Below are positions 10,935 through 54,915 of a DNA stretch of 64,000 bases, piece after piece. The notes beneath the pieces are model-generated. The model saw only the letters and a program-made list of their open reading frames with translations. It searched no databases and had not been told where the DNA came from. The position numbers and the translations under genes were made by a program. Numbering within the stretch: position 1 is the stretch's first letter; each line of letters begins with the position of its first letter. The stretch is taken from contig DASXYX010000028.1 of the NCBI GenBank assembly GCA_036502245.1, positions 96,637-160,636 of the forward strand, read 5' to 3'. Origin of the DNA: Verrucomicrobiia bacterium. Lineage in GTDB: Bacteria; Verrucomicrobiota; Verrucomicrobiia; Limisphaerales; UBA11358.

Positions 10935-11032
10935 CCAACCCTTTCAGGGTCGAAAATCATGCGGACAATTAACCCAGCGTAGGCGCGAGCGCCAACGCTG
11001 GGCTATATGATTTCAACCCCGTTGGGGTTGAA
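10935..11032. repeat. REP cluster (trailer-type module, solo copy)
   Basis: Three hairpins: CCAACCC-TTTCAG-GGTCG (degenerate), CCCAGCGT-N14-ACGCTGGG, TCAACCCC-GTT-GGGGTTGA. The same module occurs at 11672-11768 and 24362-24460. Confidence 0.75.
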
Positions 11033-11106
11033 AGGCGACTTTAACCAAAACTTCTACTTAATTTCCAAATACTCAAACATGAAGTAGCGAAACGTATTAA
11101 ACCTTT

Positions 11107-11206
11107 GGCAATCCCAAAGGGATTGCAATAATATAGCCCGGCGTTGCGAGGAACGAGCTACGCCGGGTTACGTCCAAAGCAAATATTCAACCCTGAAAGG
11201 GTTGAA
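11107..11206 (+). repeat. Structured ~100-bp leader of RAYT copy 1 (three hairpins)
   Basis: GCAATCCC-AAA-GGGATTGC; CCCGGCGT-N15-ACGCCGGG; TTCAACCC-TGAAA-GGGTTGAA. Near-identical copies at 23798-23897 and 24528-24627. Confidence 0.75.
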
Positions 11207-11215
11207 TCAAAGTTT

Positions 11216-11671
11216 ATGCCGCAGTCCTTATCAAATATTTTGGTGCATGCCGTATTTTCCACCAAAGATCGGCGTCCGTTTATCCGGGATAAAGGCTTAC
11301 GCGGTGAATTGCACAAATACATCGGCGGCATTTTGAATCATCTCGATTGTTATCCACTCATCGTTAGCGGTGTTGAAGATCACGTGCATCTGCTCTCCAC
11401 CCTCTCCCGTACTTGTGAACCGGCAGAAATGGTCAAAGAGGTCAAACGTGGCTCATCGTTATGGATTAAGCAAAGGGATGTAAAGCTGCAGGATTTTGCA
11501 TGGCAAAGTGGTTACGGGATCTTTTCCATCGGGGTTTCCCAAATTGAACCAGTCAGTAATTATATTGCGGGGCAGGAAGAACATCACCGGACAGTTTCAT
11601 TTCAGGATGAATTGCGGAAATTATTGCGCGAACACAAAATCGAATTTGATGAACGGTATGTCTGGGACTGA
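11216..11671 (+). CDS. rayT: REP-associated tyrosine transposase (RAYT; IS200/IS605-like Y1/HUH transposase fold), copy 1
   Basis: 151 aa from ATG 11216. HUH motif (DHVHLL) and YIAGQEEHH catalytic-Tyr motif. No tnpB partner. Flanked by REP hairpins. The longer ORF-track start at 11144 runs through the repeat leader. Confidence 0.9.
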   Translation: MPQSLSNILVHAVFSTKDRRPFIRDKGLRGELHKYIGGILNHLDCYPLIVSGVEDHVHLLSTLSRTCEPAEMVKEVKRGSSLWIKQRDVKLQDFAWQSGYGIFSIGVSQIEPVSNYIAGQEEHHRTVSFQDELRKLLREHKIEFDERYVWD

Positions 11672-11768
11672 TTCAACCCTTTCAGGGTTGAATTTATTCG
11701 CAACCTGAACCCAGCGTAGGCGCAAACGCCAACGCTGGGCTTTATTATTTCAACCCCGTTGGGGTTGA
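11672..11768. repeat. REP cluster (trailer of RAYT copy 1)
   Basis: TTCAACCC-TTTCAG-GGTTGAA; CCCAGCGT-N14-ACGCTGGG; TCAACCCC-GTT-GGGGTTGA. Confidence 0.75.
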
Positions 11769-11790
11769 CGACCGTCCGTTTCACAATTTA

Positions 11791-23792: not shown

Positions 23793-23797
23793 GTTTT

Positions 23798-23897
23798 GGC
23801 AATCCCAAAGGGATTGCAATAATATAGCCCGGCGTTGCGAGGAACGAGCTACGCCGGGTCACGTCCAAAGCAAATATTCAACCCTGAAAGGGTTGAA
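23798..23897 (+). repeat. Structured leader of RAYT copy 2
   Basis: Same three hairpins as 11107-11206, with single-base differences. Confidence 0.75.
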
Positions 23898-23906
23898 TCA
23901 AAGTTT

Positions 23907-24362
23907 ATGCCGCAGTCCTTATCAAACATTTTGGTGCATGCCGTATTTTCCACCAAAGATCGGCGTCCATTTATCCGGGATAAAAGCTTACGCGATGAAT
24001 TGCACAAATACATCGGCGGCATTTTGAACCATCTCAATTGTTATCCACTCATCGTCGGAGGTGTTGAGGATCATGTGCATCTGCTCTCCACCCTTTCCCG
24101 AACCTGTGAACCGGCTGAAATGGTGAAAGAAGTCAAACGCGGATCATCGTTATGGATCAAGCAAAAGGATTTAAACCTGCAGGATTTTGCATGGCAGAGT
24201 GGCTATGGAATCTTTTCCCTCGGAGTTTCCCAAATCGAACCAGTCAGTAATTATATTGCAGGGCAGGAAGAACATCACCGGACAGTTTCATTCCAGGACG
24301 AATTGCGGAAATTATTGCGCGAACATAAAATCGAATTTGATGAACGGTATGTATGGGACTGA
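23907..24362 (+). CDS. rayT: REP-associated tyrosine transposase (RAYT), copy 2
   Basis: 151 aa. 8 amino-acid differences from copy 1 by manual alignment (G27S, G30D, D44N, S51G, R87K, V89L, K90N, I105L). Same HUH and Y motifs. Confidence 0.9.
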   Translation: MPQSLSNILVHAVFSTKDRRPFIRDKSLRDELHKYIGGILNHLNCYPLIVGGVEDHVHLLSTLSRTCEPAEMVKEVKRGSSLWIKQKDLNLQDFAWQSGYGIFSLGVSQIEPVSNYIAGQEEHHRTVSFQDELRKLLREHKIEFDERYVWD

Positions 24363-24460
24363 TTCAACCCTTTCAGGGTTGAATTCGTTTGGAACCTGAA
24401 CCCAGCGTAGGCGAGAACGCCAACGCTGGGCTATATGATTTCAACCCCGTTGGGGTTGAA
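24362..24460. repeat. REP cluster (trailer of RAYT copy 2)
   Basis: TTCAACCC-TTTCAG-GGTTGAA; CCCAGCGT-N14-ACGCTGGG; TCAACCCC-GTT-GGGGTTGA. Confidence 0.75.
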
Positions 24461-24527
24461 GGCCAATTACGTTAGTGCTCCCCCATTATATTATTTCGTC
24501 AAGACTTGAAGATTCAGAAATGTTTTT

Positions 24528-24627
24528 GGCAATCCCAAAGGGATTGCAATAATATAGCCCGGCGTTGCGAGGAACGAGCTACGCCGGGTCATGTCCAAAC
24601 CAAATCTTCAACCCTGAAAGGGTTGAA
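24528..24627 (+). repeat. Solo RAYT leader (third copy, no transposase gene behind it)
   Basis: GGCAATCCCAAAGGGATTGC..CCCGGCGT..ACGCCGGG..TTCAACCCTGAAAGGGTTGAA, followed directly by the 3' end of the convergent gene at 24660. Confidence 0.7.
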
Positions 24628-24659
24628 TCAATTTCATCAACAACAGCAAACCTCCCCTA

Positions 24660-35514: not shown

Positions 35515-36141
35515 TCACCAGTCCTTGATGACTTGATTTTGCGGCGGTTGCTGATTTCCCTTTGGCCCCATTTGCAGATATTGCTCGTTTTCCTTTTGCG
35601 CGTCCAATAATCGCTTGGCGTCTTCCGCCGACATCATGTTCGCCTGCTGTTGATTCTGATCAGCCTGCTGCGCCTGCTGGCCTTTTTGTTGTTGGTTCTG
35701 CTTCGCCTGATTTGGTTGATTCTGCTGCTTTTGACCCTGCTGTTGTTGATTTTTTTGGTTTTGCGACTGGTTCTGCTGGTTCTGTTGCGATTGCTGATTC
35801 TGTGATTGTTGCTGTTGGGACTGGTTCTGCTGAGATTGATTCTGTTGCGATTTATTTTGCTGGCTCTGCTGGCTCTGGTTTTGATTCTGCTGATTTTGCT
35901 GGTTCTGTTGATTCTGTTGGCTTTGGGACTGCTGCTGTTGCTTGAGTAATTGCTCCAGCTTTTTCAATTTGTCGTCGTCGGGGTAGAGCTTCAAGCCCTT
36001 CTCCGTCCTGTCCAGTGCCGCGGGGACGTTGTTGGAAATATAAAGCCGCGCGCCGCCGTTGAAATAATCGTCAGCGGTCTGCGCGTCCGCGGCCATGGAG
36101 GCCAACAGGAGATTAAGGCTGATGAGGTGTCGAAATGTCAT
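35515..36141 (-). CDS. BatC-like exported TPR protein with long Gln/Asn-rich low-complexity region
   Basis: Signal peptide (..LLLASMAADAQT), one TPR-like unit, then about 100 residues of Q/N/S repeats. Last gene of the Bat operon; overlaps the batB end by 29 nt. Confidence 0.65.
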   Translation of the reverse strand: MTFRHLISLNLLLASMAADAQTADDYFNGGARLYISNNVPAALDRTEKGLKLYPDDDKLKKLEQLLKQQQQSQSQQNQQNQQNQQNQNQSQQSQQNKSQQNQSQQNQSQQQQSQNQQSQQNQQNQSQNQKNQQQQGQKQQNQPNQAKQNQQQKGQQAQQADQNQQQANMMSAEDAKRLLDAQKENEQYLQMGPKGNQQPPQNQVIKDW

Positions 36142-37774
36142 CGATGTCCTTCAATCGTTTGGTGTAATCCTGGAATTGTTTAGCCGCGACCGTCTTTTGC
36201 AACGGCGCCATGATCTCCAAGGCGCGATGATACTCGGCCTGCCGGACCGCCGTATCCGCTTCCTGCTTGGCTCGCAACATCATCTCGCGGAATTCCTTGA
36301 TCTGCTCGATCGCATTTTTTGTGAACTGATCATTGTACACCGCATCGGTGTCATTGGTGTTCAGGTTCACAGCGCGGGCATAACTCTTTTCCGCCATCTC
36401 CAATCCCGCCTGGAGTCCGTCCAAATCCTTCGCGTCTTTTGCGGACTCGAACTGCGCGTTGCCCAGGTTGTAATACGCCTGTTGTTGCATTTTCCAATCC
36501 GGCGAGAGTGCCGCCTGCGTGAACAACTCCTGCGCCATGTCAAAGTTTGTTGCCCGATACGCTGCGTCTCCGGCATTGAAAACCAGGCGGAAGTCGTTCG
36601 TGCGCGTTTCCGCCAATTGCGAATATTCCGCCAGCGCATTCGTGAAATTGCCTGACTGATATTCATGCAGCGCCGAGGACGGTGATGCTTTGGACGCCAT
36701 CGGCAGCACCAAAAGTGCGAATAGCACCGCGACCGCCGTCGCCGTCGTTGCTTTGGGCAGGCCTTGTGCTCGAGGCTGATTCTTTCTTTCGGGCACAAAC
36801 ATTTCTACCAGCAACAACACGATGGCCAACGCCAATGGCCAGAAAAACTGTTCATGGTATTGCCGGATGAGCTTCCCCTGCCCTTGCGTTTTTGGCAACG
36901 GAGCCAACCCGCGTTCATAGAGCACATCCATGGTTTGGGCGCCTAATGGCAGATAAAATCCGCCCGTGACTGTTGCTATCTGTTGCAGGAGTGCCTCGTT
37001 CAAATGCGATTTCACGACGTTGCCTTGCGGATCCCGCACATAATCCGTGTTTCCGTTCGAATCGGCGATTCTGATCAGATCACCATCCTTGGTTCCAATG
37101 CCAACAGTGAATATCCTGACGTCGTCTTTGGCCGCCTGTTGCGCCGCCGCGAGCGCGGCGGCTTCGTTGACATTGTCTTCGCCGTCCGTCAAAAGCACGA
37201 CAATTTTGTGGGCGACACTCTGCTTGAATGCGGCCTCCGCCGTCTGGATCGCGCCGGCAATATCCGTGCCGCCTTCGGGAATGGCGTTCACATCAAGCGC
37301 CTGCACGCTCTCCTGGAAAGCGGAGTCATCCACCGTCAACGGGCATTCGGCAAATCCTTCGCCGGCGAATGCCACCAGTCCCAGCCGGTCGGATTTCGCG
37401 TCCTGCATCAATTCCATTGCAGCCAGCTTGGCACGTTCCAGGCGATTCGGCGCGATGTCTTGCGTCAGCATCGATTTGGACGTATCGATCACCACCATGA
37501 TGTCCAGGCCGTTCTGCTCGACTTCTTGCAGGTCGAACCCATGCTGCGGCCCTGCCAATGCGATGATCAAAAATACGGCCGCAAAGACCATCAGCGTCAT
37601 CCGGATTTTTCTCCGTCGCCGGGAAATGCCGACCGTCAGCGCCGGCAACAAACGGGCCTCGATAAATTGCGCCAGCAATTTTTGCCGTGTGCGCGACGCC
37701 CACCAATAAAAGGCGATTAGCGCCGGCGGTATCACCAGCAACAACCACAGCAGATAAAGATGTTCCCAGTTCAT
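36113..37774 (-). CDS. batB: BatB-like membrane VWA-domain protein with C-terminal TPR repeats
   Basis: Two N-terminal TMs, VWA MIDAS region (DIMVVIDTSKSM), C-terminal TPR. 4-nt overlap with batA. Confidence 0.85.
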   Translation of the reverse strand: MNWEHLYLLWLLLVIPPALIAFYWWASRTRQKLLAQFIEARLLPALTVGISRRRRKIRMTLMVFAAVFLIIALAGPQHGFDLQEVEQNGLDIMVVIDTSKSMLTQDIAPNRLERAKLAAMELMQDAKSDRLGLVAFAGEGFAECPLTVDDSAFQESVQALDVNAIPEGGTDIAGAIQTAEAAFKQSVAHKIVVLLTDGEDNVNEAAALAAAQQAAKDDVRIFTVGIGTKDGDLIRIADSNGNTDYVRDPQGNVVKSHLNEALLQQIATVTGGFYLPLGAQTMDVLYERGLAPLPKTQGQGKLIRQYHEQFFWPLALAIVLLLVEMFVPERKNQPRAQGLPKATTATAVAVLFALLVLPMASKASPSSALHEYQSGNFTNALAEYSQLAETRTNDFRLVFNAGDAAYRATNFDMAQELFTQAALSPDWKMQQQAYYNLGNAQFESAKDAKDLDGLQAGLEMAEKSYARAVNLNTNDTDAVYNDQFTKNAIEQIKEFREMMLRAKQEADTAVRQAEYHRALEIMAPLQKTVAAKQFQDYTKRLKDIDDISTPHQP

Positions 37775-38742
37775 GGCAATCGGCGAAAAACAGTTTGGCT
37801 CAATGCAATTTCAGCCAGCAATACTGCCAGCCCTCCAGCAATGAACCATGCGTACAATTGGCGATATTGCGTGTACTTGCTGATGACCGCTTCGGTCTTT
37901 TCCAGTTTATTGATGTCTTTATAAATCGCCGTAAGTTCTTCGGCATTCGGCGCCTGGTAAGATTTTGCACCGGTCATATCGGAAATTTTTTGCAGCGTAT
38001 CAGTATCGGGCAAATATCCCGGTGGCAATCCCATTTCATTGACGAGTTCGGCGTTGCCCAGGCCGACCGTGTAAATCTTCACGCCCAATGCCTGCGCCGC
38101 CTGCGCCGCAGTGAAAGGATCAATCTTGCCCGAATTATTTCCGCCATCCGTCATCAGCACGATGATTTTGCTCTTCGATTTCAGGTCCCGCAAACGGTTC
38201 AACGCCGTCATGATGCCATCGCCAATCGCCGTGGCGTCCGAATTGATCGTGCCAATTCCCAGACGGTCTAAATCATCCAAGAGAAAATCATGGTCCAGCG
38301 TAAGCGGAGATGCGATGAATGCCTGCGCGGCAAACACGACGATCCCAATGCGGTCATCCGGGCGGCCCTCAATGAATTTCTTCAGCACGGCCTGGGCAAT
38401 ATTGAACCGGCTGATGCGTTGTCCGTTGATCGCGTAGTCGGGCGTGTTCATGCTGCCCGAAAGGTCGAGCGCCACGACAATGTCAATGCCGCTGGCCTTC
38501 ACCTCGGTTGTGCTTTTGGAGAGGCGCGGCTGCGCCAGTGCAGCAATGAACAACGCCAAAACCAGCCAGCGCAGAGCGGCAAGGAAATGCCCCGCGCGCG
38601 ACTTGCGCACCGACGTCAACCCTTCGATTAGTTTCAGCGAGGAATATAAGAATGCCGGCTGCGCGCTGCGCCGGCCCTTCAGCCATGCCGCCACGGGCAG
38701 CAGCAACAACAGCAATAGAAGATATGGATGGCCAAAGCTCAT
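37771..38742 (-). CDS. batA: BatA-like membrane VWA-domain protein
   Basis: MSFGHPYLLLLLLLLP N-terminus typical of BatA. MIDAS DIVVALDLSGSM. C-terminal TM. Confidence 0.88.
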   Translation of the reverse strand: MSFGHPYLLLLLLLLPVAAWLKGRRSAQPAFLYSSLKLIEGLTSVRKSRAGHFLAALRWLVLALFIAALAQPRLSKSTTEVKASGIDIVVALDLSGSMNTPDYAINGQRISRFNIAQAVLKKFIEGRPDDRIGIVVFAAQAFIASPLTLDHDFLLDDLDRLGIGTINSDATAIGDGIMTALNRLRDLKSKSKIIVLMTDGGNNSGKIDPFTAAQAAQALGVKIYTVGLGNAELVNEMGLPPGYLPDTDTLQKISDMTGAKSYQAPNAEELTAIYKDINKLEKTEAVISKYTQYRQLYAWFIAGGLAVLLAEIALSQTVFRRLP

Positions 38743-39308
38743 TTCGATTTCCCGCTCATTTCTGCCAGCGCCTGGATCATTTCACCACCTGACATTTCTT
38801 TAGGCTCCGTTTCCTCGACCAATTTGACCGCCGCGCCGTGCAGGTCGCGCAACTCATTTTCACCCGGTTCGTATTTGGCGAATTTAACCAGGTCGCAATT
38901 CTCCAGGAAATTTCCCAGGCTTTCCTTTTGCTCGGGTGCCAGGCGGTCAGTCTCGCTCAATTCGCGTAAAAACTCTTCGGTCGTCCGCTCAGGCGCGCGA
39001 AATTTGAAACGCTCTTCCAGGTAAAAGCGCACCGTGTCCGAAACCAGCACGCAAAAGGGCTTTGGTTGCGTGATGATCTCCAGCGCTTTCTCCAGAGCCT
39101 GCTTCGCGCGAATATGCGCCGGAACAGGTGGCACGTATGCCGCAGCCGCGCGCCTCTTTTGCCAATACAACCACGCCAACCGCGAGATCACCAGCAACAC
39201 CACCAGCGCGAGCGTCCACCAGACGAATATCCAACCGTTCGAGATCTCAATCGGCGGTTTGATATCCCGGATGTCCGGCATAGCCTGCGCTGGAATATTT
39301 GTAGTCAT
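38739..39308 (-). CDS. DUF4381-domain membrane protein
   Basis: IRDIKPPIEIS..W..TM.. N-terminus typical of DUF4381 proteins in MoxR/DUF58/VWA operons. Confidence 0.8.
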   Translation of the reverse strand: MTTNIPAQAMPDIRDIKPPIEISNGWIFVWWTLALVVLLVISRLAWLYWQKRRAAAAYVPPVPAHIRAKQALEKALEIITQPKPFCVLVSDTVRFYLEERFKFRAPERTTEEFLRELSETDRLAPEQKESLGNFLENCDLVKFAKYEPGENELRDLHGAAVKLVEETEPKEMSGGEMIQALAEMSGKSK

Positions 39309-39313
39309 TCAGA

Positions 39314-40222
39314 TCATCCACGCAACCTTCGCTTCTCACGCGTCTCAAAAAATCGCCCCAGGGCCGCGCTATATGGCTCGTCAGTTCGAACCTGGATAGA
39401 GTCGATGCCTGACGACCTGAATTGCCTTGCCAGTTCTTCAATCTGTTTTTCCTGTTTTAACGCAAATGCGCTTCGGCTGCTCGTACTCCCCGTATTGATT
39501 TCAAGGATTTCGCCTGATTCGGCGTCCTCCAAAATCAACCGTCCCAACGCCGGTAATTCCATTTCGTAACGGTCCGTGATCTGCACCGCCACCACATCAT
39601 GTTTACGGTTCGTCTGCCGAAGCGCGCTTTGGACTACTTTTGGCAGCATACCGCCGCCTTTTTCCGTTAGAAAATCGGAGACCACCACCGTCACAGCCTT
39701 GTGCGATTGTACCCGCATGAGGAATTCCAACGCCCGCCCGAGGTCGGTGCCCCGCCGCTTTGGCTCAAAATACAACACTTCGCGGATGACTCGAAGCACG
39801 TGACTGCGCCCTTTGCGGGGCGGAATGAATTTCTCCACCTCGTCTGTAAAAAGGATCAGCCCCACCTTATCACTGTTGCGGATGGCGGAAAATGCGAGCA
39901 CCGATGCAATTTCCGCCGCCAGCTCGCGTTTCGACTGCCCGCGCGAACCGAACAATCCCGATCCGCTCACGTCCACGACAAGCATGAGCGTCAACTCACG
40001 CTCTTCGACAAATTTTTTGATGAACGGATGGTTCATGCGGGCGGTAACGTTCCAATCAATCGAACGCACGTCATCCCCGGGCTGGTATTCACGCACCTCA
40101 TCGAAGTTCATCCCCTGCCCCTTGAAGACCGAATGATACTGGCCTGCGAGCGTCTCCGTCACGATACGGTTCGTGCGGATCTCGATCTGCCGGATTTTTT
40201 TGAGGATTTCGCGGGGGATCAT
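39314..40222 (-). CDS. DUF58-domain protein (MoxR-associated, VWA-like)
   Basis: 302 aa. ..GQYHSVFKGQGMNFDEVREYQPGDDVRSIDW.. is the canonical DUF58 motif. Confidence 0.9.
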   Translation of the reverse strand: MIPREILKKIRQIEIRTNRIVTETLAGQYHSVFKGQGMNFDEVREYQPGDDVRSIDWNVTARMNHPFIKKFVEERELTLMLVVDVSGSGLFGSRGQSKRELAAEIASVLAFSAIRNSDKVGLILFTDEVEKFIPPRKGRSHVLRVIREVLYFEPKRRGTDLGRALEFLMRVQSHKAVTVVVSDFLTEKGGGMLPKVVQSALRQTNRKHDVVAVQITDRYEMELPALGRLILEDAESGEILEINTGSTSSRSAFALKQEKQIEELARQFRSSGIDSIQVRTDEPYSAALGRFFETREKRRLRG

Positions 40223-40242
40223 GCGCTTGCAAAATGATTCGT
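40148..40242. repeat. Direct repeat A (5' leader + first 25 codons of the intact DUF58 gene)
   Basis: Aligns with 40813-40907 (offset 665 bp). The 74-nt core 40155-40228 vs 40820-40893 has a single mismatch. Confidence 0.85.
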
Positions 40243-40261
40243 GGGCGGTAGATTAAGAGAT

Positions 40262-40498
40262 ATGAGCGCGACCGAAATATTTAACGCAGCAAAGGCCCTT
40301 CCAGTGGCTGAGCGAATCGAACTTGCGCAAAAATTAAATGACGATCTTCTCGATGAAGGTTTCGACCCCGATTTGACACCGGAACAAGCCGCGGAACTGG
40401 ACCGTCGTGCTGAAGATGCGCTAAAACATCCTGGACGTGGCACACCCGTCGAAGAAATTTCTGCCGAAATCAAAAAACGCCTCCTGGCTAAAAAATGA
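40262..40498 (+). CDS. Addiction-module antitoxin (Unstab_antitox/TIGR02574-like)
   Basis: 78 aa from ATG 40262. ..[25 protein letters not shown]....[13 protein letters not shown]... ATGA overlap with the ParE-like toxin. Confidence 0.8.
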
Positions 40499-40803
40499 CG
40501 TTCAGCATCATTGCCGGGGCTGAAGCCAAGAGAGAGTGGAATGAGGCTGTGGACTGGTATGAAGCGCGAGAAATAGGTGTAGGCTGGCGATTCAACGACG
40601 AACTCCAGGCCTTTCTGCAAATTCTTAGACATAATCCAGAACGGTTTCAAATGGCGACTACCTTGACGCGCAAGGCTAAAATGCCGGAACCATGGCCTTA
40701 CTCGGTTTACTTCACCATTAATAAAGAACATCGCGAAGTTAAAATTCTTGCCATCTGGCATGGTGCACGAAATCCCACAGACCTGCGCCAACGGCTGAAG
40801 TAA
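40495..40803 (+). CDS. parE: RelE/ParE-family type II toxin
   Basis: 102 aa. ..[11 protein letters not shown]....[17 protein letters not shown]......RKAKM..WPYSVYF.....[14 protein letters not shown].. pattern of ParE-like toxins. Confidence 0.85.
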
Positions 40804-40812
40804 CATGCTCAC

Positions 40813-40907
40813 GAGTGTTTCCGTCACGATGCGGTTCGTGCGGATCTCGATCTGCCGGATTTTTTTGAGGATTTCGCGGGGGATCATGCGCTTACAATAT
40901 GCTTCGT
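40813..40907 (-). pseudogene. Direct repeat B: orphan duplicate of the DUF58 5' leader and first 25 codons
   Basis: Minus strand from ATG 40887 encodes [25 protein letters not shown], identical to the DUF58 N-terminus, then diverges. Lies 43 nt downstream of the DUF5069 stop. Confidence 0.75.
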
Positions 40908-40930
40908 TGCCGATCAAATTTTCCATGCAC

Positions 40931-41344
40931 CTAGTCTTCTGCTTCATCGGCTTTGTGAAAATCAAAAGCAGTTTGAATGTCGTCACGATGCGTAAATCCG
41001 TGCTTCTTCTTTTCCGCGACTAACCATTCACTCACGTCGTCGCGCCAGCCGCGTTTGGTCATGAAAGCGTTCCAAACAAAAATCTCTTCTTCAGTTGGAC
41101 GGCGGCCATTTTGAAAACTCCATTCTAAAATATCTTCGTCAGTTCCACCCTGCAAAGCGCGTTTCACAAGCGTTTCGTAATCAACATGAAGGAACCGGAG
41201 ACAGCGGCCATCAAACCCATGTCCGCGATTGTAATCCGACGGCAACACGCCTTGAGCATGCAGACGGATCTTATCGAGCATGCGTCCGAAGAAAACAATG
41301 TCGCCAACTTTTTCGTATGAGTTTCGCAGACCAGGAATTTTCAT
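40931..41344 (-). CDS. DUF5069-domain protein
   Basis: 137 aa from ATG 41344. ..[31 protein letters not shown].. resembles the DUF5069 family. 10 nt after the moxR stop. Confidence 0.7.
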
Positions 41345-41354
41345 GGCAATTGGC

Positions 41355-42359
41355 TCACGGCACCGGCAGTTCATCAAAAATCTTCTGGATGACCGTCTCG
41401 CTGGTCTTTTCCTCGGCTTCCGCTTCGTAAGTGATGGCCACGCGATGGCGCAACACGTCCATGCCGATGCTTTTGACGTCTTGCGGTGTCACATAACCGC
41501 GCCCTTTTAAGAACGCATACGCTTTTGATGCGAGCGTCAGCGCAATGGTCGCGCGCGGTGAGGCGCCCAGTTGGATAAACTCTTTCACCGCGATCTTGTA
41601 ATGGTCCGGATCGCGCGTGGCGCAGACCAAATCCACGATGTAATCCTTCACCTTGTCGTCCACGTAAATGTCATTGATGACTTCGCGCGCTTTGACGATG
41701 TCTTTTGGGTCCACCACGGCTGAAGCGGTCGGGGTGCCGGAAGTTTTGGCCATAACGTCGAGAATTTGGCGCTCTTCCGCGCGGTTCGGATAACCGATCT
41801 TCAACTTCAACATGAAGCGGTCCACTTGCGCTTCGGGCAGCGGATAAGTGCCCTCCTGCTCAATGGGATTTTGCGTCGCCAGCACCAGGAACGGCTCATC
41901 CAACTTGAACGTCTGGTCGCCGATGGTCACCTGGCGCTCCTGCATGGCTTCCAGCAACGCGCTTTGCACCTTAGCCGGCGCGCGGTTGATTTCATCCGCG
42001 AGGACCAGGTTGGCGAAAATCGGCCCTTTGCGCGTAGTGAATCCGCCGGATTGTGGGTTATAGATCTGCGTGCCGACCACGTCGGCAGGCAACATGTCCG
42101 GCGTGAATTGCAGGCGCGAAAATTTCACGCGTATCGTGTTGGCCAGCGATTTCACCGCCAGTGTCTTGGCCAGGCCGGGCACGCCTTCCAACAGCACATG
42201 GCCGTTGGCGAGCAGGCCGACGACCAGCCGCTCGGTCAAATAATTCTGGCCGACGATGACTTTGCCGAGTTCATTAAAGAGCGGATGCGTGAACGCTCCC
42301 GCTTCTTTGACGGCTTCATTGATTGCAGAAATGCCTGTGTTCATTATGTTTTCCGACAA
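41355..42359 (-). CDS. moxR: MoxR-family AAA+ ATPase
   Basis: Walker A LLEGVPGLAKT, Walker B LVLADEINRA, ..ATQNPIEQEGTYPLPEAQ(V)DRF.. signature. Confidence 0.93.
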   Translation of the reverse strand: MSENIMNTGISAINEAVKEAGAFTHPLFNELGKVIVGQNYLTERLVVGLLANGHVLLEGVPGLAKTLAVKSLANTIRVKFSRLQFTPDMLPADVVGTQIYNPQSGGFTTRKGPIFANLVLADEINRAPAKVQSALLEAMQERQVTIGDQTFKLDEPFLVLATQNPIEQEGTYPLPEAQVDRFMLKLKIGYPNRAEERQILDVMAKTSGTPTASAVVDPKDIVKAREVINDIYVDDKVKDYIVDLVCATRDPDHYKIAVKEFIQLGASPRATIALTLASKAYAFLKGRGYVTPQDVKSIGMDVLRHRVAITYEAEAEEKTSETVIQKIFDELPVP

Positions 42360-42390
42360 TTAAGTTTGTATGATGTTCAACCTTTTCTCC

Positions 42391-43128
42391 CTAGGCTCCC
42401 GGAATAAGTTCTACCTGTTTCGTGGACAGCCAACCAATCTTTCCTGACCCGTCGGTCACCTGCACCCAGCCCCCGTGCTGGTCCAAAACTGAAAGCTCGG
42501 TGCCGTCGCGGGCGGCGAACGCGTTTTGCGCGTCGTCAAAAGGCCCGGTTCGCGTGACCACATCGCCCACGATCACCGCGCTATGTTGCGTGAAATGTTC
42601 CACCGCCTGCGCGCCGGCGACCGCCGCAAAAAAGACCGTGAGAAAAATCAACCAGCCTGTGACCCAGCGCAGCCGGGGCGCCAGCGCAGGACGCAGTTGG
42701 CGCGCCGCGAGTAACAGGAAAGTCAGCCAAAATGCCACTGCCGCCAGCAATGTCCATTCGTTCAACGTCAGTTGACCCAGCCAGCCCTGCAATCGCCCTT
42801 CATGCAAACTGGAGCCTTGCACCTGGCCACGAACAAAATCCAGGTTGGCGGGGATTTCCGGATCGCGCGGCGACAATAACTCCGCCTGGCGGAACGCGGC
42901 AACCGCTTTGCCCACGTTGCCTGTCTTGAATTCCGCGTTCCCATAATTGAATAACAAATTCGGCGAAACCTGGCCGGATTGCAGGATCGTCTCGTAAGCG
43001 CTCGCGGCGTCGGCAAATTTTCCTTTCGCATATAACTCGTTGGCAGAAGAAAAATCCGAGACTGGATCTGCCGCCAGAACTTCTCCGGCGCACAGGAGCG
43101 CAATCAATATGGAAAGCCAATATTTCAT
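42391..43128 (-). CDS. BatE-like protein (signal peptide, TPR, TM segments, C-terminal SH3b)
   Basis: Start ATG 43128 (MKYWLSILIALLCAGEVLA), which forms an ATGA overlap with the batD stop. TPR units. C-terminal ..GGWVQVTDGSGKIGWLSTKQVELI is SH3-like. Confidence 0.75.
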   Translation of the reverse strand: MKYWLSILIALLCAGEVLAADPVSDFSSANELYAKGKFADAASAYETILQSGQVSPNLLFNYGNAEFKTGNVGKAVAAFRQAELLSPRDPEIPANLDFVRGQVQGSSLHEGRLQGWLGQLTLNEWTLLAAVAFWLTFLLLAARQLRPALAPRLRWVTGWLIFLTVFFAAVAGAQAVEHFTQHSAVIVGDVVTRTGPFDDAQNAFAARDGTELSVLDQHGGWVQVTDGSGKIGWLSTKQVELIPGA

Positions 43129-44906
43129 ACCTTCAAGTTCTGTAATTCGCCCACTACTTTTTCGAATTTTGTCGCGATCGTGTTCAGTTCTTCGCTGCCA
43201 CGGACGGGCGCGTATCGCGCCTGATTGCATAATTGGAAGAGTTCACGCAAGCCGGTGAGCAGTCCCTCCGGCGCACCCCGGCGCGCCAGACTATCGTCCA
43301 CCACCGCCTCAGTGATGGAACTGGCCGGACAATCCAGCCGCTCACCCAGTTGCTCTTGTAGCAACCGGAAAAGCGTTGTGAAAAATGCCTCCGGATTGTT
43401 TTCCGCGGCGAATTTTTTCAAATCTCCCATCCCCATCTCGATCAGTCCCGCCACCAGGCGCTGCCTCCGCAACCGCGGATTGTTTGCCAAATTGTCCGTA
43501 CGCTTTCTCCATACCAGAGCCGCGATAAAAGCGATGACTGGAAGCGCCTGGGCTGCCAAAAAGACCGGACTGGCGACCAATGTTCCTGTGGCCGACGTAA
43601 GCATTCCCAGATTCTGTTTGATGGGCAAAATGTCCTGCGGCGCCTGGCCCTCCTGAGTTGAATTTTTCGCGACGGCGACCGTGGGCAGAGGCGTCGCGCT
43701 CCCCGCCTGCACTACCAACCGCTCGGATGGCTGGATCAGGGTATGATATTGGCCATCATCGGGGTTAAAATAAGAGAAAGAAAATCCGGGCAGTTCATGG
43801 ACATTCGCGCTTTCTGGCGTCACGATCTCTTCAAAAGTTTTGGCGCCCTCTTGTCCCAGTGAATCCGTAGTCTCAATTTTGGAGGTCGGTGTAAAAATTT
43901 TGAAGCCGTTCCAGCCGGATTGGTCGGGCATCTTCACATTATCCAGCGAGCCGCGCCCGCTGATCTGCACGTGGACGGTGATGGGATCGCCCGCAGTCAC
44001 ATTCGTCGGCCCCGCAGTGACATTCATGGAAAAATCGCCAATGGCCCCGTTAAAATTCGCCGGCACATTCTGATCCGGCAACGGCAACGATTGGGCTTTG
44101 ACCGGATCGGTCGCCACCGTCACCTGTTTTTCCTGGCCCTGATTGAAAAATTGCGAGACGAAGTCTCCTCCCTGGTTTTGCGACGGCAAAACGACGATCA
44201 TACTGGCAGTGAACGGCCCGAGAGTTAAATCTCCCGCGCGTGTCACCGTTAGCGCCAGCGAGAGCGGGATGACCGTATAGCCCCGATTCCCGATTTGTGT
44301 GTGAAAACGTGTTCCCTGCGCGTCTTTGCCGAGTATGAACCCATCGGCGGGCGTGGATGTCATTTGGAATCTTCCAAAATTCTGGACGTCATCGCGCAAA
44401 TAAATCTGCACTTCCGCGGCCAGCGTTTCGCCATTGTAAAGCCGCTGTTGTGGCAGGCTTAATTTCATGAAGGCCACTTCGCTGCCGGAATTGACCACGG
44501 CGGCGGAAGGCGCATTGGCCTGGCTCACCGTCAATTCCAGCGCCCGACTGGTGATCTGCTGGCCGTTGATATCCGCCTGCATCGCCGGGATGGTAAATTT
44601 TCCAGCGCGTTGGGGTGTGATCGAATAAGTCACCGTAACGGATGAACTCATCGCCCCATTGACATAACTCATGGTCTCAGAATTGCCGGTATAAGAAATC
44701 TGCAACCCGGAAACGTTCGGCGTAGGAGGACGACCCGGCTGCGCTCCCTGGAAGGAAAGCGACAGCGTCGCCGTTTCACCCAATGAAATCGTGTCACGGT
44801 CGAGCGACGCCGTAAAACTGGCGGCGCGCGCAACCGATACTATCGCTGTCAGGAAAAAAAAGAGAACAGCTACTACGGTTGATAACTTGTATCTGGTCAA
44901 ACGCAA
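43125..44906 (-). CDS. batD: BatD-like oxygen-tolerance protein
   Basis: 593 aa, TTG start. Signal peptide; ..FTASLDRDTISLGETATLSLSF.. N-terminal BatD pattern; late TM and C-terminal helical region. Confidence 0.85.
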   Translation of the reverse strand: MRLTRYKLSTVVAVLFFFLTAIVSVARAASFTASLDRDTISLGETATLSLSFQGAQPGRPPTPNVSGLQISYTGNSETMSYVNGAMSSSVTVTYSITPQRAGKFTIPAMQADINGQQITSRALELTVSQANAPSAAVVNSGSEVAFMKLSLPQQRLYNGETLAAEVQIYLRDDVQNFGRFQMTSTPADGFILGKDAQGTRFHTQIGNRGYTVIPLSLALTVTRAGDLTLGPFTASMIVVLPSQNQGGDFVSQFFNQGQEKQVTVATDPVKAQSLPLPDQNVPANFNGAIGDFSMNVTAGPTNVTAGDPITVHVQISGRGSLDNVKMPDQSGWNGFKIFTPTSKIETTDSLGQEGAKTFEEIVTPESANVHELPGFSFSYFNPDDGQYHTLIQPSERLVVQAGSATPLPTVAVAKNSTQEGQAPQDILPIKQNLGMLTSATGTLVASPVFLAAQALPVIAFIAALVWRKRTDNLANNPRLRRQRLVAGLIEMGMGDLKKFAAENNPEAFFTTLFRLLQEQLGERLDCPASSITEAVVDDSLARRGAPEGLLTGLRELFQLCNQARYAPVRGSEELNTIATKFEKVVGELQNLKV

Positions 44907-53470: not shown

Positions 53471-53606
53471 TTTAGCCCCTTCTAAAGCTCGTGGTGTGCC
53501 TTGAGACGGCGCGCCTGTTTTCCTCTCTTTCTCCACGGAATTTTGTGCCCGTGAATTGCCCCTAAAGTCCCGCCGCGCATGAATGGCGGAAGAAAAATTT
53601 GAACCT

Positions 53607-54044
53607 ATGAAAACGAATAAGATTTTGATGATAGCTTTAGCCGCTTTTATCGGCTTTGGCATGGTAATGATTTTAAACCATGCTCGTTCCCAATCCACCA
53701 GCGACCGGAAAGCCCTTTACTATACCTGTCCGATGCACCCGTCTGTCAAAGCAGACAAACCCGGGAGTTGCCCCATTTGCGGCATGAACCTTGAGCCGGT
53801 TTACGGAGATGATGCCACCAACACAGTCTCCAGCGGCACAAACAACGCGACGACGAATTCCGCCGCTAAACCGTATCCCTTCGACACCTGCCTGGTTGAT
53901 GGAATGAAGCTCGGCAGCATGGGCGATCCGTATGTGTTCGTCTACCAGGGGCAGGAGGTCAAATTTTGTTGCGTCAGTTGCAAGCCGGTTTTCCTGAACG
54001 ATCCCGACAAATATCTAAAAAAGATCCAGGACACCCAAAAATAA
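53607..54044 (+). CDS. Membrane-anchored heavy-metal-binding-domain (HMBD) protein with C-terminal Cys motif
   Basis: TM anchor. [27 protein letters not shown] (HMBD). C-terminal ..DTCLVDG....[10 protein letters not shown].. TRASH/YHS-like. Alternative start at 53583. Confidence 0.75.
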
Positions 54045-54045
54045 T

Positions 54046-54915
54046 ATGAAAGCAAAATTCATTCTATTTGTGATCGTCGTGTTGGCAGCTATCGCGGTTT
54101 TTATCCACCTTCCGGCAAAGTTCAGTTCCGCGTCGGCGTCCAATGGCCGCAAAGCGCTTTACTACACTTGCGCGATGCACCCGTGGGTCAGAGAAAACAA
54201 ACCCGGCCCATGCCCGGTTTGCGGCATGAACCTGACACCGGTGTATACCGATGAAAACGGCGCGGCAACCAATCAGGACGGCGATCCCGGCACCGTCACC
54301 CTTGAATCTGAAAGCATCAGCGCCATCAACGTGCAGACGGATCTGGTTGAGCGGCGTCCCCTGCGGCACACGTTGCATCTTTCCGGGCAGATCACCGGCA
54401 ATTCGGCGCAAGCGGCATGGTTCGAGTTCACCGCCTATCAACGCGATCTGGAATGGCTCAAGATCGGCCAAACGCTCAATATTTTTGTGGCCGGGCTGCC
54501 GGACAAAATTTTTACGGCGCAGATTAAACTGCACGGCACTCAACCGTTTGCCGACATAAATTTCGACATGATGACCAGCAGCACAACCATTCGCGCGGAG
54601 ATTTCCGATCCACCGGTTGAAGTTGGTGATTTGGGCAAAGCAAAACTGTTCAACGGCCTTCATGCCGAAGCTCATCTGGTGGCTGAAACCGGGCCGACGT
54701 TGACGATCCCGCGCAGCGCAATCATTTCACGCGGTATCGGTGCAATGGTCTATGTGGATAAAGGCAACGGCCACTACGCGCCGCGAGCCGTGGAGCTTGG
54801 CCGCATCGGCGATGAATTTGCCGAAGTGACCGCCGGGTTGAATGAAGGGGAAAAAGTCGTCACCACCGGAAACGTGTTGATCGATTCGGAAGCGCAACTC
54901 AACGCCGGCGAATAA
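54046..54915 (+). CDS. cusB: RND efflux periplasmic adaptor (CusB-like), short form with N-terminal HMBD
   Basis: TM anchor. YYTCAMHPWVRENKPGPCPVCGMNLTP. Barrel-sandwich/beta-barrel/MP-like segments. Only 289 aa, with no obvious alpha-hairpin. Confidence 0.8.
   Translation: MKAKFILFVIVVLAAIAVFIHLPAKFSSASASNGRKALYYTCAMHPWVRENKPGPCPVCGMNLTPVYTDENGAATNQDGDPGTVTLESESISAINVQTDLVERRPLRHTLHLSGQITGNSAQAAWFEFTAYQRDLEWLKIGQTLNIFVAGLPDKIFTAQIKLHGTQPFADINFDMMTSSTTIRAEISDPPVEVGDLGKAKLFNGLHAEAHLVAETGPTLTIPRSAIISRGIGAMVYVDKGNGHYAPRAVELGRIGDEFAEVTAGLNEGEKVVTTGNVLIDSEAQLNAGE

Follow-up and report, generated by a model that had tools for sequence, protein, structure and literature searches.

An open antisense reading frame spans toxin–antitoxin cassettes between duplicated DUF58 starts at the moxR–DUF58 junction of Limisphaerales

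A 64,000-nucleotide (nt) stretch of a Verrucomicrobiia bacterium contig (DASXYX010000028.1, positions 96,637 to 160,636; hereafter the window) carries a plus-strand ParE toxin–antitoxin (TA) pair inside a minus-strand operon of the MoxR–DUF58–Bat type, where the pair lies between two direct copies of the 5' end of the DUF58 gene. Contig Ga0376652_0000101 of JGI metagenome 3300036780 is identical to the window, and its sequence has also been deposited as a Verrucomicrobiae metagenome-assembled genome. The copy on the moxR side, copy B, opens a reading frame that runs antisense through both TA genes and closes with a stop codon overlapping the ATG of intact DUF58. This layout recurs at the moxR–DUF58 junction of related genomes, and across them selection has kept the antisense frame, which we call the bridge, free of stop codons. 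On balance we consider it probable, from comparison of these DNA sequences, that an addictive cassette is recruited by recombination at the 5' end of DUF58 and is then kept translatable on the operon strand.

A bridge frame kept open across cassettes

The bridge begins at the ATG of copy B (40887-40885, minus strand), crosses ParE and the antitoxin in antisense for 222 codons without a stop, and terminates at a TGA (40221-40219) that overlaps the ATG of DUF58 (40222-40220). An in-frame ATG at 40926-40924, 4 nt past the stop codon of the DUF5069 gene, would extend it to 235 codons (40219..40926, within a listed open reading frame, ORF, of 40219..40986). The bridge frame is codon-aligned antisense to ParE and is offset by one base in the antitoxin. 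The original prediction described copy B as a dead-end fragment, which it is not: it starts a conserved open frame spanning the insert as far as the DUF58 ATG. The alternative offered there, that the duplicate was once under selection, holds in a sense that had not been foreseen, namely that the bridge frame starting in the duplicate has been kept open.

To place the window among its relatives, one genome per species was scanned, yielding 80 orthologous DUF58 loci, all from Limisphaerales/Verrucomicrobia subdivision 3 metagenome-assembled genomes (MAGs); their moxR–DUF58 junctions are designated by L-numbers (L001-L080 and onward). In about 35 of the 80 loci, one or more additional N-terminal fragments of DUF58 precede the real gene. 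Antisense ParE/antitoxin pairs are present in 27 loci, with toxins 28-62% and antitoxins 34-75% identical to those of the window, and three loci (L027, L077 and L087) carry two fragments and two cassettes. Elsewhere a fragment is followed by DNA resembling repetitive extragenic palindromes (REP) or miniature inverted-repeat transposable elements (MITE), or by sense-strand genes (KilA-N, HNH, VanY, DUF5069, methylases, restriction–modification (RM) genes and PIN).

In 32 of the 38 intervals between a fragment and the next copy, the ORF is open over 87-377 codons and ends at the ATGA of that next copy; L087 has a 494-codon frame across two cassettes and L017 a chain of two such ORFs. In the insert DNA of the 32 open intervals, the three frames of the operon strand were compared over 6349 codons: the bridge frame contains no stop codon, the others 180 and 198. 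Since the antisense frames of both ParE and the antitoxin are intrinsically stop-poor, matched controls were used, consisting of host genes of the same loci read in the same antisense frames. The ParE genes contribute 0 stops in 2780 codons and the antitoxins 2 in 2736, as against 0.4-1.1% and 1.2-3.4% per codon in the host-gene controls. When each TA gene was instead recoded with host synonymous codon usage, its protein held fixed, the probability of an open frame was ~0.58 per gene, and open frames were observed in 28 of 28 cases (10^-6.6) and in 33 of 34 (10^-9.7). TTA, CTA and TCA codons are found in none of the 28 ParE orthologues.

The offset from one DUF58 copy to the next is 2 modulo 3 in 31 of 39 cases (p = 4e-9), and inserts of REP/MITE-like DNA are bridged too. 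Of 79 loci, 51 have a nearest upstream sense ORF that reaches 4 nt into the DUF58 start (ATGA overlap), and only two leave more than 120 nt of RNA uncovered before DUF58; in those two the upstream context of DUF58 differs. A further measure, the fraction of the interval lying under any sense ORF of at least 60 codons, proved too crude to inform.

What is kept is the openness of the frame. Both TA genes are intact in the 27 loci and are under purifying selection, with ratios of non-synonymous to synonymous substitution rates (dN/dS) of 0.12 for ParE and 0.16 for the antitoxin. Over the ParE stretch the bridge frame has a dN/dS of 1.23 (the bridge value over the antitoxin, 0.26, is uninformative since the wobble positions of both frames coincide). 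ParE is thus constrained and the sequence of the bridge is not, from which it follows that openness rather than protein sequence is being maintained. Viewed as an antisense overlapping gene, the bridge is a long ORF kept open across taxa that lacks purifying selection on its own residues.

A protein search with the bridge of the window returned 185 homologues. Nearly all of the 55 that were fetched begin MIPREILKK, and the three exceptions that were looked up also lie between moxR and DUF58, in ORF chains with 4-nt overlaps. Gene callers annotate these homologues as hypothetical proteins. The bridge protein has no Pfam or NCBIfam match, and its sequence changes with the cargo, of which it is simply the antisense translation, be it REP/MITE DNA or one of several TA families.

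Duplication and arrival at the DUF58 5' end

The direct repeats, copy A (40147-40247) and copy B (40812-40912), were identified by repeat search and alignment; they are 101 nt long, 92% identical and 665 nt apart, constitute the only long repeat within 5 kb and are similar far above chance. As originally predicted, each holds some 20-25 nt upstream of the ATG together with codons 1-25 of the minus-strand DUF58 gene, and the repeat search places both in one family. In copy A the upstream part is the promoter end of the cassette and the codons are those of the intact DUF58 gene; in copy B, 25 nt resembling a cassette promoter end precede the ATG and codons 1-25 (40813-40887), from which the bridge starts. 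The alignment likewise confirms that the three coding differences (CGT/CGC, GAG/GAA and ACG/ACA) are all synonymous, and the predicted spacings are correct: the ATG of the fragment follows the DUF5069 stop at 43 nt, repeat A ends 19 nt short of the antitoxin ATG, and 9 nt separate the ParE stop from repeat B. The repeat search found no inverted repeats at the ends of the insert, within which only the two TA genes lie.

In the relatives the repeat mostly begins right at the ATG, with a left extension of 0-2 nt, and is 61-85 nt long with a mode of 81 nt (27 codons, ending ...TETLAG). The first 61-85 nt of DUF58 are the repeat unit and the apparent recombination target in this lineage. The extra 20 nt of "leader" similarity in the window match the antitoxin-side end of one cassette type, as they do in L001, L005, L022, L030, L042, L071 and L077; what precedes copy B is therefore probably left over from the end of an earlier cassette. 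Beside this we observed that the 43 nt which separate the DUF5069 stop from the ATG of copy B (noted at 40913-40930) resemble a degraded cassette promoter end (plus strand, TTACAA-N16-TCAAAT) and are now read as a 13-codon extension of the bridge ORF; the resemblance suggests that an earlier cassette once stood there. The N-terminal 25-27 residues of the fragments are largely kept (111 synonymous versus 53 non-synonymous differences). Between species (L001-L080), synonymous codon identity is 0.7-0.8 in DUF58 codons 1-80 versus ~0.5 in the remainder of the gene. Homogenisation by recombination was considered as a special signature in these values and rejected; synonymous identity in moxR is 0.6-0.75 along its whole length, so the signal is not diagnostic.

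The suggestion in the original prediction that the insert arrived with flanking homology from a foreign DUF58 gene is backed by two pairs of sister genomes, one member of each filled and the other empty, in which the repeats are reciprocal mosaics. The DUF58 genes of L001 (filled) and L002 (empty) are 94.5% identical. The left copy of L001 has native upstream DNA and native nt 0-11, including the GTG start of L002 that overlaps the moxR stop, and is foreign from about nt 32; its right copy is foreign over nt 0-14 and native beyond. L025 and L058 present the same reciprocal mosaic with the crossover nearer nt 8-14. The crossover intervals are accordingly nt 14-32 in L001 and between nt 8 and nt 14-45 in L025, and in the window the crossover apparently lies beyond nt 71. 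In addition, the first codons beside the antitoxin end of the cassette (codon-2 alleles) co-vary with cassette type (Fisher p = 0.006).

The empty sites expected in relatives exist. In 11 loci (L002, L011, L016 and others) DUF58 lies within 111 nt of moxR or overlaps it, and three loci of the order moxR–DUF5069–DUF58 (L045, L067 and L074) have DUF58 1 nt after DUF5069. The original prediction also stated that relatives lacking the TA pair and still carrying the duplicated segment would speak against it; such relatives were found (L025, L040, L056, L064, L029, L047, L003 and L068), and the duplication is therefore a property of the insertion site and not of the TA pair.

We propose that the first ~27 codons of DUF58 act as a recombination hotspot at the moxR–DUF58 junction of Limisphaerales. 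Incoming DNA would carry a DUF58 start segment next to a cassette, and a single reciprocal crossover inside the shared homology would insert it. Most likely this would be homologous (Campbell-type) recombination of a circular intermediate made up of the 27-codon segment (N27) and the cassette, leaving the cassette between two DUF58 starts. No recombinase gene was found in any of the ~60 moxR–DUF58 intervals examined, nor were recombinase-like ORFs seen in the 5-kb upstream flanks that were inspected, an inspection short of an exhaustive profile scan. Single-strand folding of both strands of both repeat copies gave no advantage over shuffled sequence (z from -0.28 to +0.17), and so no attC-like structure, and the pattern for the DUF58 5' segment (N25), a possible attP, had 0 matches in viral contigs. 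Together with the differing crossover positions, the lack of a recombinase, of an attC-like fold and of a viral copy favours homologous recombination, and we infer that it is RecA-type rather than integrase-mediated. A search of metagenome contigs for an empty or variant allele of the window species gave 0 matches to a 24-mer of the copy-B leader; the window's own contig likewise went unmatched and is apparently absent there.

Several of these features would also arise from site-specific integration or accretion, with the DUF58 5' segment as the core of an attB site and the TA units as integrase-less, cis-mobilisable elements (CIME-like or integron-cassette-like). The repeats begin at the ATG in most loci with almost no left extension (0-2 nt) and end within 61-85 nt with the mode at 81, tandem arrays of fragment and cassette occur in L027, L077 and L087, many unrelated cargoes (KilA-N, HNH, RM and VanY) occupy the same site, and the crossover intervals of L001 (nt 14-32) and of L025 (nt 8-14 or later) meet at nt ~14. 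We nonetheless regard such a mechanism as doubtful. Of the marks of an integrative element the inserts show the direct repeats of a target-gene end, and neither an element-encoded recombinase nor a fixed crossover was found: the ~60 intervals hold no recombinase gene, the repeats have no unusual single-strand fold (z ~0), the N25 pattern is absent from viral contigs, the crossover intervals differ by locus, and the allele pattern of the window would need a crossover near nt 72-76. Integrase-mediated accretion would in any case touch the insertion step only, and the bridge would still be selected.

A small foreign module between direct repeats also calls to mind a transposon-type target-site duplication, or a fresh illegitimate insertion that left copy B as a dead-end pseudogene. 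This is hardly credible: repeats of 61-101 nt are far beyond the duplications made by transposases (2-15 bp), terminal inverted repeats and a transposase are missing, the copies differ at synonymous sites and form reciprocal mosaics in sister genomes, and the fragment is the start of a conserved ORF. Two further candidates were tried and rejected. For a diversity-generating retroelement, the differences between the copies (C/T, C/T and A/G plus changes in the leader) are not confined to adenines and no ORF of reverse-transcriptase size lies between or beside the repeats; for an integron attC site, the repeat folds no better than shuffled sequence.

Genomes that are ~91% identical in DUF58 carry different cassette types (e.g. 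L033/L035; L027, L042 and L047), which indicates fast turnover. ParE homologues of 100%, 78% and 63% identity were looked up and the context of all three is this junction; as far as sampled, the cassette clade appears to be specific to the site.

At other loci of the set the junction carries sense-strand cargo (L003, L039, L041, L048, L055, L066, L068, L075/L076, L081 and L082): KilA-N, HNH nucleases, DNA methyltransferases, a likely RM pair, a PIN toxin, VanY, a beta-lactamase-like gene and a REP-associated tyrosine transposase (RAYT), many of them ATGA-linked. Such genes are typical of defence or mobile islands, and to judge from this cargo the moxR–DUF58 junction is a general hotspot beyond its apparent use as a dock for TA pairs. 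Elsewhere in the window there are two 96-98% identical copies of a 175-aa IS200/RAYT-like gene (11144-11671 and 23835-24362, in regions 10954-11769 and 23794-24631; motif ...HVHLLSTL...), with palindromic REP-like repeats of 79 nt and 108 nt on their flanks (AACCCAGCGTAGGCG...CGCCAACGCTGGGCT, CAACCCCGTTGGGGTTGA). These repeat sequences recur inside bridged inserts of other loci, e.g. L025 and L022-type ORFs.

Possible role of the bridge

Translating ribosomes shield intragenic Rho utilization (Rut) sites, and loss of translation leads to polarity on downstream genes of an operon (PMC12360218). Across the cassettes the untranslated antisense stretch would otherwise measure 0.3-1.1 kb. We suggest that the upstream copy retains the DUF58 start and early codons in order that ribosomes leaving the upstream gene may initiate there; they would translate the bridge antisense across the cassette and stop on the TGA of the ATGA that holds the real DUF58 start. 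Selection would keep the bridge stop-free in two ways, through insert lengths of 3n+2 and through synonymous codon choice in ParE and the antitoxin. The benefit would be an operon mRNA that is never untranslated over more than ~110 nt, by which Rho-dependent polarity is avoided and termination-reinitiation into DUF58 and the bat genes is kept. The TA pair, for its part, would make the insert addictive, allowing it to persist although the flanking direct repeats could delete it precisely; post-segregational retention of this kind would fit the finding that TA pairs are the commonest cargo between these deletable repeats. Translation of the bridge, the benefit against polarity or for coupling and the addiction role are all to be understood as proposals.

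A bridge that is conserved across dozens of loci might instead encode a functional protein, either a third TA component or a MoxR-interacting decoy bearing the DUF58 N-terminal peptide. The ORF is long, standard pipelines call it as a gene, and the N-terminal residues of the fragments are largely conserved, by the 111 synonymous and 53 non-synonymous differences given above. We consider this improbable, given that the dN/dS of 1.23 over ParE reveals no sequence constraint, that Pfam and NCBIfam hold no match, that the sequence follows the antisense of the cargo from REP/MITE DNA to different TA families and that the length ranges from 87 to 494 codons. Very improbable, in our estimation, is a neutral by-product, in which a single ancestral insertion was open by chance in a frame with few stops, its descendants have yet to acquire stops and the repeats are a relic. 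Both antisense frames are indeed intrinsically stop-poor and a single cassette would be open by chance with P ~0.3. The cassettes, however, are only 28-62% identical in protein with synonymous sites near saturation (proportion of synonymous differences, pS, 0.4-0.7), and still have 0 stops in 2780 and 2 in 2736 codons; the other frames of the inserts carry ~190 stops each; independent REP/MITE insertions, too, show the 3n+2 length and an uninterrupted frame, and sister genomes differ in cassette content, so that turnover is recent.

Against recruitment by recombination followed by maintenance of a translatable frame stand several observations. Taken by itself, the window has an open frame that is not significant (P ~0.3, given its proteins and the codon usage of the host), and the case therefore rests on the comparison across genomes. 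Six of the 38 intervals break the simple pattern, most of them holding sense-strand genes or a second ATGA-linked ORF. The allele pattern of the window against its nearest relative, L004, is opposite to that of L001 and L025, L004 being not close enough to decide the matter; the origin of the first cassette-plus-N27 unit is not accounted for; and an integrase acting in trans could have served in place of RecA-type recombination. About a dozen empty relatives have an untranslated spacer of 56-111 nt before DUF58, which means that coupling is not obligatory for DUF58 translation. The C>G skew of the operon-strand RNA over the cassette is only +0.02, with no strong Rut site evident.

As to the wider proposition, that such inserts are kept "translationally transparent", with selection acting on ribosome transit and reaching the codon choice of the TA genes, and that the DUF58 5' end is a recombination-fed cassette dock whose entry rule is an open frame, we find the arguments for and against it about evenly balanced.

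The cassette, its operon and known systems

The TA pair consists of a 78-aa antitoxin (40262..40498, plus strand) of the TIGR02574/PF09720 "addiction module component" family and a 102-aa ParE/RelE-family toxin (40495..40803, plus strand). Profile matches confirm that this pair, joined by an ATGA overlap (40495-40498), stands alone between the repeats. The antitoxin matches PF09720 Unstab_antitox (E 2.5e-10, 40.7 bits versus a cut-off of 23.3) and TIGR02574 (E 1.2e-14, 54 bits versus 31.9); the toxin matches PF05016 (E 1.3e-7, 32.5 bits versus a cut-off of 23) and has no NCBIfam match. With a toxin above the curated cut-off and a small co-oriented antitoxin gene directly upstream and overlapping it, the pair has the features of a type II TA system, and by these profiles it would be an ordinary new member of the ParE/TIGR02574 family. 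Across cassettes, 3-9 nt separate the ParE stop from the fragment end.

The original prediction held that the TA promoter must lie inside DUF58 coding DNA. This is not needed, since a conserved promoter-like motif lies within the 39-nt spacer: TTGC[AG]N-N16/17-TA[AG]ATT-N6/7-ATG is conserved upstream of the antitoxin in 23 cassettes that represent all cassette types. In the window the element (40227..40254, plus strand) reads TTGCAA (40227-40232), 16 nt, TAGATT (40249-40254) and 7 nt before the antitoxin ATG; it has 8 of 12 consensus matches, which is below the threshold of the sigma-70 scan. A promoter so placed implies that the predicted transcript is a leaderless mRNA. Intrinsic-terminator and sigma-70 scans were at background level (hairpin consensus, 6 sites versus 4.5 expected). 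The consensus scan did pick out a weak hairpin followed by a T7 run (GCGGATCTCGATCTGC CGGATTTTTTT; 40840..40865, plus strand) inside the duplicated DUF58 codons of repeat B, right after the ParE stop, which may, speculatively, serve as a terminator of the TA transcript.

Two further features of the cassettes were noted in relatives. Where 60-110 nt separate the antitoxin ATG from that of DUF58, three to four tandem heptamers adjoin the DUF58 ATG, upstream of the cassette -35 (L013, L015, L018, L019, L021, L035, L051, L060, L004, L054 and L069). They vary with cassette type (for example GGCGAAT x3, GACGAAT x3, GAAGGTT x3, GCGTGAT x4, TGGCGAT x3 and TTGCCGA x3), are absent from the short type-1 spacer of the window, and could be operators or an UP-like element. 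Orphan antitoxin-like genes without a toxin partner (87-135 aa, ending ...RRKNPACA.K.KE) sit between a complete TA cassette and DUF58 in L004, L022, L042, L054 and L069, and the bridge frame spans them too.

The surrounding operon is conserved. The neighbouring minus-strand genes encode a TPR/SH3 protein, MoxR, DUF5069, DUF58, DUF4381, BatA and BatB. Upstream of the variable junction lies moxR (41355..42359, minus strand), an AAA+ ATPase gene (Pfam AAA_3, E 2.9e-66, plus AAA_lid_2) with 80-97% identity across all related loci. The DUF5069 gene (40931..41344, minus strand; PF16798, E 3e-39) is a variable occupant of the junction: only about 13 of the 80 related loci have it, and in L063 it stands downstream of a DUF58 N-terminal fragment. 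The intact DUF58 (vWA-like) gene (39314..40222, minus strand; PF01882, E 6.6e-82), which defines the 80 orthologous loci, is followed on the same strand by the DUF4381 gene (38739-39308; weak Pfam match), batA (37771-38742; Pfam BatA and VWA) and batB (36113-37774; Pfam VWA and TPR), and these downstream genes (36113..39308) are joined by 4-nt overlaps or 5-nt gaps. With the bridge included, the minus-strand chain is unbroken: moxR, 10 nt, DUF5069, 4 nt, bridge ORF, ATGA, DUF58, 5 nt, DUF4381, ATGA, batA, ATGA, batB. The succession of moxR, DUF58 and genes for BatA/BatB-type vWA proteins on one strand identifies a Bat/MoxR–DUF58–vWA operon, and the gene order is shared by the 80 loci. A permissive Rfam scan of 38000-43500 found no RNA family.

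Two observations in the window lie apart from the junction. After batB comes a 208-aa minus-strand ORF (35515-36141) that is mostly a Q/N-rich low-complexity tract (QQQSQSQQNQQNQ...) and has no Pfam match; the tract gives rise to a 12-copy degenerate repeat family at 35650-35949. A segment of 115 nt, 75% identical between the adjacent genes 53583-54044 and 54046-54915 (region 53698-54254), encodes a metal-binding-like N-terminal motif, CPMHP...CP.CGM; this is a local paralogous domain duplication unrelated to the junction.

Long antisense frames in bacteria are contested and are normally argued from expression data of single genomes. If our interpretation is correct, the bridge would be among the cleanest comparative cases of a long antisense frame kept by selection in bacteria, the selected property being translation and not the product. 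It would represent a strategy of cost avoidance for mobile or addictive genes that land inside operons, and translationally transparent selfish inserts would constitute a new principle; stop codons placed in the bridge would then be polar, in a Rho-dependent manner, on the expression of DUF58 and the bat genes. The junction would also exemplify a small cassette system that lacks an integrase and uses the first 27 codons of a host gene as its "attachment site", the crossover being documented by the mosaics in sister genomes. On the practical side, gene callers alternate between the TA pair and a bridge "hypothetical protein", with the result that such loci are inconsistently annotated in public MAGs. 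A literature search turned up no description of a bridge arrangement of this kind.

The individual components of the arrangement have counterparts in known systems. Like other ParE/RelE type II TA systems with a TIGR02574 (PF09720) antitoxin, the pair has its antitoxin first, a 4-nt overlap, its own predicted promoter and genes under purifying selection. In contrast to the usual systems, this clade occupies a single chromosomal junction as far as sampled, is always antisense inside an operon and has almost no flanking non-coding DNA, and its codon choice is constrained by the frame on the opposite strand. Small promoter-bearing TA cassettes are likewise arrayed between repeated recombination sites in sedentary chromosomal integrons, of which the Vibrio cholerae superintegron is an example, and there the TA cassettes are thought to stabilise an otherwise deletable array (PMC13108822). 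Here, however, no attC hairpin was found, nor any IntI in the intervals and flanks inspected, the 5' coding end of a host gene serves as the repeat, and the array lies inside a working operon and is crossed by an open frame that is presumably translated.

Campbell-type integration, the accretion of integrative and conjugative elements and of CIMEs, and prophages that restore their target gene resemble the junction in their target-gene-end repeats, in having a gene copy that is part foreign and part native, and in forming arrays. They differ in that the units described here measure only 260-1100 bp and have no recombinase, the duplicated end is a 5' end with its start codon, and the displaced copy is reused as a putative translation start. 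Antisense overlapping ORFs of E. coli O157:H7, e.g. pop antisense to ompA (PMC7103648, PMC9927249), are similar in being ORFs of several hundred nt embedded antisense to annotated genes; the evidence here, by contrast, is comparative and drawn from dozens of species, the frame crosses two genes in different phases, and the sequence of its product is unconstrained. Finally, ATGA overlaps and continuous ribosome cover, which in our case we deduce from the open frame, are known from translational coupling and the suppression of Rho polarity (PMC12360218). Here that cover would be supplied by a makeshift ORF composed of a duplicated start and the antisense strand of a selfish insert.

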